NCBI GenBank assembly: GCA_943358385.1
Contig: CALRGX010000002.1
Location: 9,718-73,717 of the forward strand
Source: Parcubacteria group bacterium
Lineage (GTDB): Bacteria; Patescibacteriota; Minisyncoccia; Phycocordibacterales; UBA2100
Direction of reading: 5' to 3'
DNA length: 64,000 nt
Part shown: positions 2,832 to 6,995 of the stretch, piece by piece
How the letters are laid out: the number at the start of each line of letters is the position of its first letter
Numbering within the stretch: the stretch's first letter is position 1
Position numbers and translations under genes: made by a program
Notes under the pieces: generated by a model
What the model was told of the DNA's origin: nothing
Database searches by the model: none
What the model saw: the letters and a program-made list of their open reading frames with translations, nothing else

Positions 2832-3290
2832 CAAAAAAACAAACCCGAAAGGGTTTGTTTTTGTGCAGCAGGAAGCACGACATGGGGTGTCGTGCGTGAG
2901 GACTTGAAAGCGAGTCCGCAGGGACCCGTCAGCAGACGGGAACGGGCGAGGCGGCCGGCGACCTTTTCGAGCGACGGCGAGAAAAAGTTGTTGGAAAGAT
3001 TCCTCTCCTGCGCACAACAAAGACCCGAAAGGGTCTTTTTGTACGCAGGAAGCACGACATGGGGTGTCGTGCGTGAGGGCTTGAAAGCGAGTCCGCAGGG
3101 ACCCGTCAGCAGACGGGAACGGCCGAGGCGGCCGGCGACCTTTTCGAGCGACGGCGAGAAAAGGTTGTCGGAAAGATTCCTCTCCTGCACACTAAGTGCA
3201 CTTGGAAATACATACTCCCTTACGGTCATTGTATTTCTCGGTGCGCACAACAAAGACCCGAAAGGGTTTGTTTTTGTGCAACAGGAAGCA
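2832..3290 (+). repeat. 2.x tandem copies of an approximately 183-bp unit directly after tRNA-Leu. Each unit re-creates the last ~16 nt of the tRNA (tcctctcctgcgcaca) and carries a perfect hairpin aaacaaacccgaaagggtttgttt.
   Basis: Direct comparison of 2866-3049 with 3047-3197. The tRNA 3'-end copies are at 3003-3018 and 3184-3199 (degenerate). The hairpin copies are at 2838-2869, 3019-3047 and 3257-3285. Confidence 0.8.
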
Positions 3291-3365
3291 TGACCGCGGT
3301 GATGTGCGCGAAAGTGACTGCATGACGAAGTCCCGCAATAGTTGCGGGACTTCTGGGCGCACTGT

Positions 3366-3551
3366 TTAGCGCAGGCCGTGGGGGAGTCGGACATGCACTA
3401 CGCCATCAATGTACGACTGCATAGCGAAGACGACAAGACAGCCAAATGCGAGCGCAGCCGCGGCGGCCAGTAGCGCCATGACCAGTACGTTTTCTGAAAG
3501 TCGGAACGATGCTTTTCGTGGTGGATCGACGAGTGCCATATCTTCCTCCAT
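3366..3551 (-). CDS. small hydrophobic protein (hypothetical)
   Basis: 61-aa ORF with an internal GGAGG before a second Met. A single predicted TM segment (LVMALLAAAAALAFGCLVVFAM). Confidence 0.3.
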   Translation of the reverse strand: MEEDMALVDPPRKASFRLSENVLVMALLAAAAALAFGCLVVFAMQSYIDGVVHVRLPHGLR

Positions 3552-3767
3552 CGCCAGCTGCTCAACCTAGTATCACTCAAGCACACTCACGGTATTGAGT
3601 CCATGGTGTTTGTGGTGGTACATCCGCACACATGATGCCGTGACGCGGTAAGGAGCGTGGTTTACCCGAGAATCTTAGGTGCGTAGCGCTAAAGTGCTCG
3701 GGCTTGCTCGCCTGTGCGTATCTGCTAGGATTACTCGAAATCAGGGCGCCAGGCACTAAGCCAAACC

Positions 3768-5318
3768 ATGGTATCTCCTAACATAGAGTGGATCCTTAAA
3801 AATCTCGGCGAGCATCGAGAGGAAAACATATATACAGATGATCGGGGGCCTGCCATCTCAGTGAACAAGCTCGCAGGACGTGCAGGAGTGCTCTACGAAA
3901 AAGTGCGTTACATGGTCGACTACAAAGAAGAGCACACGATTCGTCGCAGTGCGATTGCGCGCATTCTTAATATAAAACTTCTCATTGAGAGGGGCGCAGA
4001 CGTGGGGCTGCCTCTCCTACAGGAATTGGTCGGCGGCGGGTACTTGCCGAACAAGACGGTTCCCGAAGCGCTTGGCCATGACATCCAGAGTATTGTTGAT
4101 AAATATCTTGCTTTGGGTGGCGATGAAGTGCCGCTCTCGACTCTGGGCAGCCTCATGGCGAGTGAAATCGAGCGCATGCTCTACCCGCAGCAGATTAACG
4201 TTCTGGTTGCAGAGGCATTTTATGCGACCGCACAGGATCAGATCAAGTACGTGGGCACTGTCGATGAAAGCGAATTACAGACACAAACGTTTATCGCCTG
4301 CAGACGCAGCCTCCTTAAGGACGACCAAGACACGCTCCTGTACGCCGTGTTGGTGCGCGCGCTACCGGAGCTTATCGACCCACACACCGAAGAGAGCATT
4401 CGAGCGTTGTCTCCGCGTTTTGTGCGCACCGTGCGTGCTATTGAAGAGAGTCTGCAAAACCCACTCGGTTGGCGCATGACAGCAAAACTGCGTAACCACG
4501 CCATTTATTTTTCCGTCATTAAAGAGCTTATCAAGCGCTACGGGGCGATGGCAGAGCCGCTTTTTAGTAACCCAGAACGTCTTGAAGGAGAGGTAAAGAA
4601 GTTCCTGGGAGAAAAGTATGATCAACAGAAGCAGCTGCTCACTAGAAGCGGCGCTCGTGCAGTGGTGTATATATTTGCGACCAAAATCATTTTGGCATTG
4701 CTTCTGGAATTGCCTTACGAGCGTTTCTTTCTGCCAGCCGTCGACTATTTCGCCTTGGGGACAAATATCCTTTTCCATCCGCTTCTGTTGTTTGGTATCG
4801 TGCAAACGACACAGCTGCCGCCGCCAAGCAACACCGATCGGATCGTGGCGAGCGTTCTCTCGGTGGTACGTGGCGACAAAAGCGAGCGGATATACATAAA
4901 GCCACAAACTGATAACTGGGCGCTGCTTCTCGTTTTTGGCGCACTCTACGCGGCGCTTTTTGGCATTAGCTTCGGGTTGGTTATATCCGTGCTCACAGCG
5001 CTTCATTTCAACATCGTGAGCATTATTCTATTTTTGTTCTTCCTCACTTTTGTGAGCTACTTTGGTTTCCGTATTCGGCACAACGCAAACGTGTGGAAGA
5101 TATACGTCGAGAAAGAGGGGATCTTGTCGCTTTTGGGTAACCTGCTGGCGATGCCGATTGTGCGCACAGGGCGCTGGCTCAGTACTCGTTTTGCATCGAT
5201 GAACATCTTTGTATTCCTACTCGACTTCATTCTAGAAACGCCGTTCAAATTCGTGCTCGGCACTTTCGACTCGTTCATTACCTTTCTTAAAGAAAAAGGT
5301 GAGGACCCGTACTACTAA
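3768..5318 (+). CDS. hypothetical membrane protein: an approximately 330-aa soluble N-terminal domain plus a C-terminal polytopic TM domain
   Basis: 516-aa ORF. The C-terminal 180 aa contains 5-6 hydrophobic helices (ILALLLELPY..., WALLLVFGALYAALFGISFGLVISVL..., IVSIILFLFFLTFVSYFGF...). No catalytic motif recognised. Confidence 0.6.
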   Translation: MVSPNIEWILKNLGEHREENIYTDDRGPAISVNKLAGRAGVLYEKVRYMVDYKEEHTIRRSAIARILNIKLLIERGADVGLPLLQELVGGGYLPNKTVPEALGHDIQSIVDKYLALGGDEVPLSTLGSLMASEIERMLYPQQINVLVAEAFYATAQDQIKYVGTVDESELQTQTFIACRRSLLKDDQDTLLYAVLVRALPELIDPHTEESIRALSPRFVRTVRAIEESLQNPLGWRMTAKLRNHAIYFSVIKELIKRYGAMAEPLFSNPERLEGEVKKFLGEKYDQQKQLLTRSGARAVVYIFATKIILALLLELPYERFFLPAVDYFALGTNILFHPLLLFGIVQTTQLPPPSNTDRIVASVLSVVRGDKSERIYIKPQTDNWALLLVFGALYAALFGISFGLVISVLTALHFNIVSIILFLFFLTFVSYFGFRIRHNANVWKIYVEKEGILSLLGNLLAMPIVRTGRWLSTRFASMNIFVFLLDFILETPFKFVLGTFDSFITFLKEKGEDPYY

Positions 5319-5359
5319 ACGTTCTTGCGCGGGTAGAGTTTTCAGGATAGTGTCGCGCC

Positions 5360-5923: not shown

Positions 5924-5941
5924 TAGCGTATACTTGAACAT

Positions 5942-6466
5942 ATGAAAGTAATGGGCGCATTTGTCATACTGGTGGTCCTTGCGCTAGGCGCGTACTTTTT
6001 CATGAACGGCGGTCTGGCCGCACTTACTCCTCAGGCACCCGCTGTTCAGCCAGTAGTCATCACTCCGGAAGCGCAGCCAGCCACGCTCACCTATACCGTA
6101 CGTGCAACATGGGAGTTTCGAGAGATTGAAGATGGCGTCAGTGACATGATGAACCCACAGACAGATGCGGCAGTAGCTTTCGAGGTAACACCAAATACCG
6201 GAGTGCCTTATACAAAAGGTCCGTTCCGACTTGGCGCCTTTACTGGTTCCTGTGCAGAACAGTCGCAAGGATTTGCAGGATCAGCGGTCGCTGGTGCTAG
6301 CCAGTACGCACTCTGTTGGTTTGCCGGGGGTGGCACTGAGCTTGCGGTGGTACCCCAAGGAGCCCAAGTGTCGCTTTTTAGTCGCGACGTTTCTGAAAGT
6401 TCACCAGAAGCAGAAGCAATTCCTTCAGAGCCAGTGACGATACTGACGGTCGACCTTGCCGAGTAA
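5942..6466 (+). CDS. secreted or membrane-anchored hypothetical protein
   Basis: N-terminal hydrophobic anchor MKVMGAFVILVVLALGAYFFMNGG. No homology recognised. Confidence 0.5.
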   Translation: MKVMGAFVILVVLALGAYFFMNGGLAALTPQAPAVQPVVITPEAQPATLTYTVRATWEFREIEDGVSDMMNPQTDAAVAFEVTPNTGVPYTKGPFRLGAFTGSCAEQSQGFAGSAVAGASQYALCWFAGGGTELAVVPQGAQVSLFSRDVSESSPEAEAIPSEPVTILTVDLAE

Positions 6467-6518
6467 TTCAATATTTTCGAAACCTGTGCTATAACACGAG
6501 TGCTGGAAACAGCCGGAT

Positions 6519-6590
6519 GGTGACTATGGTGTAGCGGTAGCACAGAAGCTTGTGGAGCTTTTAGTTCGGGTTCAACTCCCGATAGTCACC
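6519..6590 (+). tRNA. tRNA-His (anticodon GTG) with an encoded G-1
   Basis: 8-bp acceptor GGTGACTA/TAGTCACC (G-1:C73, the His hallmark). Anticodon stem GAAGC/GCTTT with loop TTGTGGA. T-arm TTCGGGTTCAACTCCCGA. Confidence 0.85.
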
Positions 6591-6592
6591 CA

Positions 6593-6995
6593 AAAAGCAA
6601 CAACCCGCGCAAGCGGGTTTTGTTGTTTTGGTGACTAACGGTACATTGCAAATGTACTGTAGGGAGTTGAACAGATTGGCGGTGTACGAGCGCAGCAGCG
6701 CTTGTCGCCAATCTGGTGCCCAGAAATTTTTGGAGCGACGGCGAGAAAATTTCGAGGGAAACGACCTACATCACCCAAAAAAAATACAGAGAACAATGTG
6801 CAACATTGTTCGACCCATATTTTTTGTGACTATCGGGAGTTGAAAACCGGAGCCGGTACACAAGACGACACTGAGTGCACGAAGGGGAGTGCTTGTCGGC
6901 GAGGTGGGGTCGCGACCCTTGGCACAAGGAGTTGTGACCAACTCCCGATAGTCACCCAAAAACAACGACCAGCGCAAGCGGGTTTTGTCGTTGCT
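6593..6995 (+). mobile_element. approximately 400-bp element-like insertion downstream of tRNA-His. Boundaries are imprecise direct repeats of the tRNA 3' end plus its terminator hairpin.
   Basis: caactcccgatagtcaccc plus the hairpin gcaacaacccgcgcaagcgggttttgttgtt at 6573-6625 recurs at 6940-6993 (about 85% identity). Inverted copies of the tRNA 3' end lie at 6630-6672 (interrupted by a 20-nt palindrome) and at 6827-6845 (gtgactatcgggagttgaa). The internal motif gagcgacggcgagaaaa at 6727-6743 is shared with the tRNA-Leu repeats. Confidence 0.55.

Follow-up and report, generated by a model that had tools for sequence, protein, structure and literature searches.

Does a motif that recurs behind two different tRNA genes mark one kind of element, and what kind would that be? 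The question arises in the window, i.e., the whole stretch of 64,000 nucleotides that was analysed, where the first-pass annotation had reported the same motif twice in the repeats of tRNA-Leu and once in an insert of tRNA-His.

The flagged motif and its structured core

The recurrence was found to be real and non-random. GAGCGACGGCGAGAAAA had three exact matches in the window, all on the + strand (2969–2985, 3146–3162, and 6733–6749), whereas the chance expectation was 0.04 (mean over dinucleotide shuffles) and none of 100 shuffles reached three. With its arms, the motif reads TTTTCGAGCGACGGCGAGAAAA in the tRNA-Leu repeats and TTTTTGGAGCGACGGCGAGAAAATTTCGAGG on the tRNA-His side (Table 1). 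The annotation had the three sites right and their positions slightly wrong; 2957–2978 was off by 7 nucleotides, 3140–3161 was off by 1, and the tRNA-His motif, placed at 6723–6750, was found at 6727–6757. The T-run and A-run arms can pair, as had been proposed, and the minimum-free-energy fold of each of the three units placed them in the stem of the hairpin UUUUC-GA-GC-GACG-GC-GA-GAAAA, whose internal loop is of the tandem G-A type.

The motif corresponds to the apex of one of the two adjacent hairpins that make up a conserved core of ~90 nucleotides; each of these hairpins contained a CGAG/CGAG-type tandem G-A internal loop. A covariance model of 89 positions (R1), built solely from genomes other than that of the window, was found by cmsearch to match the window five times: twice after tRNA-Leu (45–46 bits), twice after tRNA-His (35.5 and 25 bits), and once in a pseudo-5S fragment. 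The tRNA-Leu and tRNA-His structures thus belong to one family, as had been suggested. R1 had 148 matches in 701 kb of CPR loci, and the apical motif was optional, being absent from 43 of 148 model matches, including unit B2 and the 5S copy of the window.

In the alignment of 59 sequences, 94.9% of the cells were paired compared with 34–49% in slid controls, and 226 compensatory cells were found compared with 65 in shuffles, none of 500 shuffles reaching 226. One G-U pair was retained in 57 of the 59 sequences, and because of the conserved G-U pairs the strand is fixed, i.e., this strand alone folds. The core therefore displayed what is generally expected of a conserved structured RNA, namely covariation above shuffled and slid controls and strand-specific pairs. 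The consensus structure was found to be two simple hairpins, pseudo-symmetric in their two equivalent G-A motifs, with invariant unpaired CGAG and GGAG nucleotides directly at the junction with the target-derived helices. This strand-specific pairing suggests that the core exists as RNA, and a folded single strand of DNA fits it equally. We consider it fairly probable that the copies of this core make up a family of small non-coding insertion elements that is endemic to Patescibacteria (CPR).

Table 1. Features of the tRNA-Leu array (2748–3320), the tRNA-His pair (6519–6993), and the pseudo-5S fragment in the window.
Feature	Position	Strand	Evidence
tRNA-Leu(GAG), host gene of first array; 3' end (S1) TCCTCTCCTGCGCACA	2748–2832	+	ARAGORN; Rfam tRNA, 52.9 bits
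Terminator-like hairpin T after tRNA-Leu, AAAAAAACAAACCC GAAA GGGTTTGTTTTTGTG	2833–2865	+	Sequence; inverted repeat I9
Unit A1 5' arm, antisense to tRNA-Leu 3' end, TGTGCAGCAGGA ... GAGGACTTGAA, interrupted by inserted hairpin (2875–2895)	2862–2912	+	Sequence against reverse complement of tRNA 3' end; fold
Unit A1 core, two hairpins with tandem G-A loops; motif 2964–2985	2913–2997	+	cmsearch R1, 45.1 bits, E 2e-9
S2, sense copy of tRNA-Leu 3' end, closing unit A1	2998–3016	+	Direct repeat D5
Terminator-like hairpin, second copy	3017–3042	+	Direct repeats D2, D4
Unit A2 5' antisense arm with inserted hairpin	3043–3089	+	D1
Unit A2 core; motif 3141–3162	3090–3173	+	cmsearch R1, 45.8 bits, E 1.5e-9
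Degenerate sense copy of tRNA-Leu 3' end	3174–3193	+	D5 third copy, 76%
Array tail	3194–3320	+	Fold z -7.1; D2 third copy; sequence
Array tail, small hairpin ending GGTGCGCACA	3194–3249	+	
Array tail, third terminator-like hairpin	3250–3278	+	D2 third copy
Array tail, truncated 5' arm of further unit	3277–3320	+	
tRNA-His(GTG) with G-1, host gene of second pair	6519–6591 (6520–6591 without G-1)	+	
T1, native tRNA-His terminator hairpin; also at L141 empty site	6592–6629	+	Terminator scan; alignment A4
Unit B1 5' arm, GGTGACTA + inserted hairpin + TAGGGAGTTGAAC, antisense to tRNA-His 3' end and T arm	6630–6672	+	Inverted repeat I8; fold
Unit B1 core; motif 6727–6757	6673–6763	+	cmsearch R1, 35.5 bits, E 6e-7
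Diverged sense copy of tRNA-His 3' end, CCTACATCACCCA	6765–6777	+	D7; fold; L139 comparison
Hairpin T2, part of unit B2	6778–6825	+	I5; alignment A4
Unit B2 5' arm GTGACTATCGGGAGTTGAA, antisense to tRNA-His 3' end	6826–6844	+	I1, I3: 23–25 nt, 91–92% complementary
Unit B2 core, variant without flagged apical motif	6844–6942	+	cmsearch R1, 25 bits, E 2.4e-4
Exact 24-nt sense copy of tRNA-His 3' end, CAACTCCCGATAGTCACCCAAAAA	6939–6962	+	D8, 100%
T1', second copy of native tRNA-His terminator	6958–6993	+	D6, 87%
Fifth family member inside pseudo-5S fragment	55738–55864	+	cmsearch R1, 22.6 bits, E 1e-3; sequence
Pseudo-5S, 5S nt 1–23	55738–55760	+	
Pseudo-5S copy, UGAGAA-hairpin-GCAAG module	55761–55787	+	
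Pseudo-5S copy, core	55786–55850	+	
Pseudo-5S, 5S nt about 27–42	55848–55864	+	
Real 5S gene	55912–56019		

Host genes and target-derived arms

A genome scan for the motif returned at least 119 loci, nearly all in Patescibacteria MAGs; the sampling of loci required an exact 20-nt motif, so these counts are biased to that subfamily. The suggestion that one type of element lies behind different tRNAs was supported, as 85 of the 120 strong copies had a same-strand tRNA within 400 nucleotides upstream, representing 30 anticodon types, and no strong copy (0 of 120) had a tRNA solely on the opposite strand. Most copies were adjacent to a tRNA; about one quarter were present elsewhere, at the 3' ends of protein genes (e.g., topA) or nested in other copies. 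The opposing case considered by the annotation is thus right in part, as the motif is a dispersed repeat, but it is not a generic terminator. The element was always co-directional with the upstream gene. The copy-bearing tRNAs Lys-CTT, Lys-TTT, Ile-TAT, and Arg-GCG recurred in many genomes, which also fits old vertical inheritance. Only ~12% of the non-ascertained tRNAs in the loci examined carried a copy, and hence the element is not an obligatory tRNA module.

The copies shared a common architecture, S1-hairpin-AS-core-S2, where S1 stands for the 3' portion of the functional host gene, AS for an arm antisense to S, and S2 for a second sense copy; pairing between AS and S2 gives the closing helix of the core. 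The target supplies the sequence of the arms, and both kinds of copy, antisense and sense, were found in the window (I1/I3/I8 and D5/D8) and across loci. S extended from the T loop of the tRNA, or from just its last few bases, to the tRNA end, and in topA it comprised the last ~20 codons. The start of S2 was 17 nucleotides before the tRNA end in ~20 loci, and the length of the duplicated target varied from ~6 to ~60 nucleotides. Since S is present a second time, the host gene is not disrupted. The guide-like pairing of the arm extended exactly to the core boundary, most elements were parted from the tRNA by a 40-nt hairpin, and the total size of the element was about 130–250 nucleotides. In topA, the element was always present at the KTIPERCS codons; the in-frame second copy of the tail differed by synonymous changes, and the arm paired with the first 9–10 nucleotides of S when G-U pairs were allowed.

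In the tRNA-Leu array, unit A2 was 97% identical to A1 (D1, a 148-nt repeat), and strain L002 was found to lack exactly one 183-bp tRNA-Leu unit. In the tRNA-His pair, CCTACATCACCCA still paired with the 5' arm of B1 in the fold despite its divergence. Hairpin T2 accompanied B2 wherever B2 was present, was missing at the empty site (alignment A4), and was 98% identical in L140. The orthologous tRNA-His site was empty in L141 and contained B2 only in L140, B1 only in L139, and both B1 and B2 in the window. Between relatives, B1 was 97% and B2 92% identical, whereas the flanking coding DNA was 69–73% identical. The elements are thus conserved far above the flanking DNA and are discretely present or absent among relatives. 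This presence and absence could reflect ancestral presence with precise loss by recombination between S repeats, and the high conservation could reflect purifying selection, not recent transfer.

No protein gene was found to be linked to the element. Pfam searches of ~20 kb around the units detected no recombinase, reverse transcriptase, or transposase within ~10 kb of them, and ten large ORFs checked at 19–61 kb were housekeeping genes or free of these domains. No recurrent neighbouring protein was present in 108 loci, nor was a tyrosine or serine integrase found in or beside the element (Pfam around the units; 108 loci). As far as can be seen near the units and in the loci examined, no integrase is involved. 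Rfam 15 at gathering thresholds detected tRNA, 23S, and 5S only, and at E up to 5 no match overlapped the cores in the region 2600–7400. Between the units, the terminator-like hairpins and arms gave weak Rfam matches to CRISPR-DR28, isrK, and PK-BYV (E up to 5). No match to the element was found in phage, plasmid, and IMG/VR collections, no parent IS with a transposase sharing the element ends was seen in the fetched loci, and the literature searched contained no description of the family.

Comparison with known systems

Like the integrative elements of tRNA 3' ends, the copies target the tRNA 3' end, are flanked by direct repeats (D5, D8) that span the tRNA from its T loop to its 3' end, and restore the host gene by a carried 3' copy; here the same logic was found at the protein gene topA. 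Unlike them, the elements are 130–250 nucleotides long, are devoid of an integrase, possess one core for 30 tRNA types, and contain an extra antisense copy of the target and a conserved strand-specific fold, not protein-binding arm sites. In E. coli tRNA operons, fragments of tRNA 3' ends are repeated downstream of the tRNA genes, which resembles the family described here; they are not known to possess a conserved structured core or an antisense arm.

The copies resemble MITE and REP-type repeats (REP/BIME, Correia, and Rickettsia palindromic elements) in being small, non-coding, multi-copy, and hairpin-forming, and in their presence at gene 3' ends or within genes, without destroying them, in reduced genomes. 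However, they contained no intrinsic terminal inverted repeats common to the copies, such as a MITE has; the inverted arms are those of the local target (tRNA-Leu, tRNA-His, topA, and others) and differ from site to site, and the target duplication is not a short one of fixed length. The REP/BIME unit is an imperfect palindrome of 20–40 nucleotides, whereas the unit found here comprises a multi-helix core with arms, its interior being covarying and containing conserved G-U pairs.

Class C group II introns also insert in sense orientation just after terminator hairpins, at sites defined by short intron-exon pairing, and a further likeness is that many copies of the element start with GUGAG or GUGCG. 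The core is nevertheless ~90 nucleotides compared with more than 400 in these introns, the target is duplicated, and neither an Rfam intron match nor a six-domain structure with domain V/VI was found. A closing helix is present, as in the msr-msd of retrons, but no reverse transcriptase gene was found beside any copy.

Proposed mode of spread and its alternatives

The best reading, and a reasonably probable one, is that the copies form a new family of insertion elements that are non-autonomous, have an RNA-type structure, and duplicate their target. The elements would be non-autonomous mobile or horizontally spreading units. Because there is no room for a promoter between the hairpin and the element, read-through probably transcribes them together with the host gene. 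They probably act as a single-stranded folded molecule, either RNA or an equivalent single DNA strand, and the probable role of the antisense arm is to specify the insertion site or to keep a record of it. Candidate routes of insertion are a trans-acting recombinase on the folded strand, a reverse-transcription route, and RecA recombination through the duplicated S. More tentatively, and with considerable doubt, we propose a protein-less RNA-structured mobile element, whose self-carried antisense arm, re-templated from each new target, would set the insertion site. The core, possibly a ribozyme or a handle for a trans-acting enzyme, would attach itself to abundant host RNAs or genes in their 3' region, making a copy of the target in each orientation; this would constitute a new CPR-specific class of guided insertion via a single-stranded RNA or DNA intermediate.

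It is rather unlikely that the element is a cis-acting RNA domain that benefits the host and has been inherited vertically with frequent loss, i.e., a 3' module by which the upstream tRNA or mRNA would be stabilised, terminated, or guided in its processing, perhaps as a site for a dimeric RNA-binding protein or RNase, with the arms serving as the closing helix only. The very strong sequence conservation, the covarying structure, the constant co-directionality with the upstream gene, the presence of copies at the same tRNA species in many genera, and the resemblance of the two tandem G-A motifs to protein-binding sites argue for such a domain, as does the closing helix of B1, which was kept by a compensatory change between the window and L139. 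However, a minority of tRNAs bear a copy and the closest relative is without one at tRNA-His; a processing module would have no need to duplicate 60 nt of the coding tail of topA or to be nested in other copies or in a pseudo-5S fragment; the tandem copy number differs between strains; and the identity of B1, at 97% including loops and linkers compared with 69% in the flanks, exceeds what structural constraint predicts.

The HDV-like theta ribozymes are small structured RNAs beside phage tRNAs (PMC10879173), and the element shares with them its position directly downstream of tRNA genes. By analogy, the core could be a small ribozyme, self-cleaving or self-ligating, by which the host transcript would be trimmed or rearranged, with the antisense arm as an internal guide. 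The compact conserved fold, the invariant junction nucleotides, and the arm pairing exactly up to the core boundary would suit this role, but a 40-nt hairpin stands between most elements and the tRNA. Compared with the gut phage ribozymes, the copies are present on CPR chromosomes, their arms are target-derived, and no HDV-like or other ribozyme of Rfam was matched at E up to 5. The two simple hairpins contained no evident nested double pseudoknot or known catalytic core, and we regard a ribozyme of this kind as improbable.

The element could also serve as guide RNA to a recombinase or nuclease whose gene lies elsewhere in the genome, in the manner of IS110 bridge RNAs, TIGR-Tas, and OMEGA RNAs, with the AS and S2 arms specifying the DNA target. 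Such guides are likewise structured non-coding RNAs with target-complementary segments; here each strand of the target site has its complement in the arms, and the two equivalent G-A motifs of the pseudo-symmetric core could bind a protein dimer. In IS110 bridge RNAs the guides sit in internal loops, unlike the placement found here. TIGR-Tas systems are found in CPR bacteria, but TIGR arrays contain 8–12-nt edge/loop repeats alternating with 9-nt spacers beside a Nop-domain tas gene (PMC12045711), and neither this repeat pattern nor such a neighbour was present. A guide RNA has very little probability, as the arms pair mutually over their whole length, which would block target pairing, and no adjacent recombinase or other associated protein gene was found.

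Scars of integrase-mediated islands or prophages, with the tRNA 3'-end repeats as attL/attR and the interior as decayed larger elements, would explain the direct repeats starting in the T loop, an att geometry typical of tRNA-targeting integrases, and at one locus (L133) a XerC/D-like recombinase gene carried the element at its 3' end, but this origin is highly improbable for units of only 130–180 nucleotides with one conserved, covarying core at 30 tRNA types and protein genes, with no integrase nearby and no phage, plasmid, or IMG/VR matches, and att recombination leaves the antisense arm unexplained.

The genomes of CPR/Patescibacteria are tiny and offer little space for selfish DNA, yet the element was found in the representative genomes of well over 100 species and at several sites within single 8-kb stretches. 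One covarying core, 30 kinds of tRNA together with essential protein genes, and antisense and sense copies of the target are not known in combination. Beside the tRNA genes of CPR genomes, the family accounts for breaks in assemblies, for spurious ORF calls, and for partial hits to tRNAs. If the elements are mobile insertion elements, a targeting mechanism that is reprogrammable for each site would be needed, which is relevant to the field of RNA-guided recombination; if they are a host module, the 3'-end biology of tRNA and mRNA in a major bacterial lineage would have a level that has so far been overlooked.

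The hairpin motif and the units behind the tRNA genes

The motif GAGCGACGGCGAGAAAA was found exactly three times in the window, always on the + strand, against a mean chance expectation of 0.04 matches in shuffled sequences. The first-pass annotation had placed two copies in the tRNA-Leu repeats and a related one in the tRNA-His insert; this assignment was confirmed, but its coordinates were off by 7, 1, and 4 bases. The T-run and A-run arms, proposed there to pair, do so when the surrounding units are folded: the motif then forms the hairpin UUUUC-GA-GC-GACG-GC-GA-GAAAA, whose internal loop is a tandem G-A. 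Whole units folded much better than shuffles (z-scores -5 to -7).

Behind tRNA-Leu, a terminator-like hairpin was followed by two units, A1 and A2, that were 97% identical to each other; each closed with the tRNA-Leu 3' end repeated (TCCTCTCCTGCGCACA) and then a further hairpin copy. Located 3' of these units were a small hairpin ending GGTGCGCACA, a third hairpin copy, and the truncated start of a further unit. The order behind tRNA-His was the native terminator hairpin (T1), unit B1, a different hairpin belonging to B2 (T2), and unit B2 itself; the tRNA-His 3' end then recurred as an exact 24-nt copy, and a second terminator copy followed. Each unit had a 5' arm antisense to its own tRNA's 3' end, and B2 started with GTGACTATCGGGAGTTGAA, the complement of TTCAACTCCCGATAGTCAC (inverted repeats I1 and I3). 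An extra hairpin split the antisense arm in A1, A2, and B1 at the point matching the acceptor/T-stem junction, and in the folds the closing helix of each unit was formed by the antisense arm and the sense copy.

Features located in the window and in the fetched loci (L-numbers); window positions unless stated
Feature	Position	Remark
tRNA-Leu(GAG)	2748-2832	
Motif with T and A arms, first copy	2964-2985	GAGCGACGGCGAGAAAA at 2969
Motif with T and A arms, second copy	3141-3162	GAGCGACGGCGAGAAAA at 3146
tRNA-His(GTG)	6520-6591	
Motif with T and A arms, third copy	6727-6757	GAGCGACGGCGAGAAAA at 6733
Array region compared between strains	2740-3400	L002 7565-8041
Thymidylate synthase, PF18723 and DHFR genes	~13900-15750	L001 18544-20388
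23S rRNA match	51929-55458	
tRNA-like gene	55568-55642	between 23S and 5S
Pseudo-5S fragment	55738-55864	
Fifth family copy, core	55786-55850	within pseudo-5S fragment; R1 match
tRNA with tandem family members		L110 761-1063
topA with element at one fixed codon position		L039, L049, L052, L068, L099, L107, L138

A conserved family and its targets

R1, a covariance model built from foreign sequences with none from the window, detected five copies in the window: A1, A2, B1, B2, and one near the 5S gene. The proposal that the tRNA-Leu and tRNA-His structures form a single family was thus borne out for A1, A2, and B1, and B2 was included as well. The fifth copy interrupts a pseudo-5S fragment, made up of 5S nt 1-23 and about nt 27-42, that lies 50-60 nt 5' of the intact 5S gene. 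This copy carries a UGAGAA-hairpin-GCAAG module, which is also a hallmark of copies nested after GGGG within other elements. In the same rRNA region, the 23S match spanned 3530 nt against a 2925-position model and therefore holds about 600 nt of insertions; no Rfam intron families were reported in the window. The tRNA-like gene there scored 45.5 bits with the Rfam tRNA model; ARAGORN called it 'tRNA-???', assigning a 2-nt anticodon in an abnormal anticodon loop.

R1 detected 148 copies across 701 kb of CPR loci. GAGCGACGGCGAG was missing from 43 of them, so the flagged motif is an apical module and optional within a larger conserved core; some of these copies contained the identical GA-GC-GACG-GC-GA module on the other hairpin instead. 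Scanning one genome per species with the pattern TTTNGAGCGACGGCGAGAAA gave at least 119 loci. Among the matches listed, nearly all were Patescibacteria MAGs (Paceibacterota, Nomura-, Yonath-, Lloyd-, Taylor-, and Zambryskibacteria, Parcubacteria, and records labelled Saccharibacteria), and the few from other phyla were without the family context.

The two-hairpin structure of the core was backed by an alignment of 59 cores (A3), in which 94.9% of cells were paired, compared with 34-49% in slid controls. Compensatory cells numbered 226 versus 65 in column shuffles, and none of 500 shuffles reached 226. One junction pair was C-G in 23, G-C in 19, and A-U in 15 sequences; one G-U pair was conserved in 57 of the 59, and another position switched among G-U, G-C, and A-U. 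Because of the G-U pairs, the structure is possible only on the strand with the same sense as the upstream gene. A kissing interaction, in which the upstream hairpin would pair through its ACUGCU loop with an AGCAG loop on hairpin 1, was unsupported on inspection: the two loops were constant where both were present, and a change in the hairpin 1 loop was not tracked by its partner.

The suggestion that one type of element lands behind different tRNAs held for most of the 120 strong copies, in a sample biased towards the subfamily carrying the exact 20-nt hairpin: a same-strand tRNA was present within 400 nt upstream in 85, with thirty anticodon types represented, and none had an opposite-strand tRNA alone. 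Adjacency to a tRNA was not universal, since 26 copies had no tRNA (a further 9 were too near a contig end to judge). In one locus, a tRNA with anticodon TTA (ARAGORN 'Stop') was followed by two tandem family members.

Two intergrading geometries were found. In the first, the core begins about 45 nt past the tRNA, behind an A-rich/U-rich hairpin often containing an ACUGCU loop, and the antisense and sense repeats are short, taking in no more than the final 3-9 bases of the tRNA and trailer. In the second, the antisense arm reaches from the T loop to the end of the tRNA, and in about 20 loci the start of the sense copy lies 17 nt short of the tRNA end. A reading of class II units as tRNA mimics cut by RNase P or Z fits less well than 'antisense to target', because complementarity of the 5' arm extends to the T loop, the trailer, and protein-coding sequence as well.

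The copies without a tRNA were found at same-strand 3' ends of protein genes, namely topA (8 loci), an XerC/D-like gene, rbfA, ftsH, and others, and some were nested within other family copies. The element position in topA was invariant (codons KTIPERCS), and the arm paired with 9-10 nt at the start of the duplicated segment when G-U pairs were permitted. The second topA copy was in frame and encoded the same 19-20 residues despite 20-27% base differences. As the changes are synonymous, either both copies would be under protein-level selection, now or recently, or one of them may come from another lineage; segment identities do not separate the native tail copy from the added one.

Gain and loss among relatives

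Three database matches to the protein encoded upstream of tRNA-His gave relatives whose contigs were compared. The closest (L141; flanking gene 88% identical in DNA) contained only tRNA-His and its terminator. L140 (73%) contained only T2 and B2 at this site, and L139 (69%) only B1, placed after the terminator, with the tRNA end and terminator duplicated; the window contained both B1 and B2. B1 was 97% identical between the window and L139, and B2 and T2 were 92% and 98% identical, respectively, between the window and L140; past the last terminator no DNA similarity was evident between these genomes. One B1 stem showed a compensatory G-C to C-G change, and the diverged sense copy of the window B1 still pairs with its own arm. 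At the tRNA-Leu site, a near-identical strain (L002) lacked exactly one 183-bp unit. In the fetched loci, a detectable copy was present at just 11 of 92 tRNAs not used for ascertainment. Taken together, the presence/absence pattern, the strain difference, the low occupancy, and the high identity indicate discrete, facultative units conserved far better than their surroundings.

The gene callers placed spurious ORFs (108-169 aa) across the tRNA-Leu array, and these differed between L002 and the window. The L139 and L140 contigs begin just downstream of the expected array position, so the repeat array may break assemblies.

Nature of the elements

In about 20 kb around the units, Pfam annotation revealed housekeeping genes only. 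Of the large ORFs between 19 and 61 kb, ten were examined, and they encoded four aminoacyl-tRNA synthetases, RecA, FtsK, a transporter, a sugar transferase, and two proteins with DUF11 or peptidoglycan-binding domains only; recombinase, reverse-transcriptase, and transposase domains were found in none of the ten. Elsewhere in the window, genes for thymidylate synthase, a PF18723 (HMUDK_hel) protein, and DHFR adjoin; outside this setting, the HMUDK helical domain is known from phage thymidine hypermodification. When ORFs within 1.2 kb of the 120 copies were clustered, no recurring partner family was found beside copies in 108 loci; the recurring neighbours were housekeeping proteins (TopA, RbfA, FtsH, and others) together with spurious ORFs that span the element.

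Rfam, at gathering thresholds and at permissive E-values, returned only tRNA and rRNA, and phage and plasmid collections gave no blastn match. In IMG/VR, the 20-nt hairpin pattern had no matches, and none of 7 core-pattern matches was model-confirmed or near a tRNA; 9 matches to the bare 17-mer, all without the hairpin context, were attributed to chance. The element description was not found in the literature searched, also with the motif as text, and the family appears undescribed in these resources.

We consider it probable that these sequences represent a new family of insertion elements that are non-autonomous and have a strand-specific structure. They would be carried at the 3' ends of conserved genes, tRNA genes among them, the host gene being preserved through duplication of its 3' part. 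A host-beneficial 3' RNA module that is frequently lost is the main rival; it accounts for the conservation and the orientation but leaves the low occupancy, the nested copies, the pseudo-5S copy, and the 60-nt coding duplicates unexplained, and we regard it as unlikely. No evidence for a cDNA origin by copying from mature tRNA was found, since CCA followed 7 of 37 second sense copies versus 5 of 37 of the genes themselves. Integrase-borne island scars, generic terminators, known ribozymes, group II introns, and retrons each failed at least one tested defining feature, and TIGR-Tas (TIGR arrays) was ruled out on architecture (PMC12045711).

The antisense arm stops exactly at the start of the duplicated target and differs from site to site, so, under the insertion-element reading, it is either made from the target during insertion or guides insertion. 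RecA acting on the duplicated segments would trivially allow precise loss, as well as same-gene spread between genomes. Colonising new targets would need more than this, and the putative candidates are a trans-acting enzyme recognising the conserved core or an RNA-level reaction. The architecture is unusual in that, with no linked protein, one core occurs at many targets with target-derived arms in both orientations.
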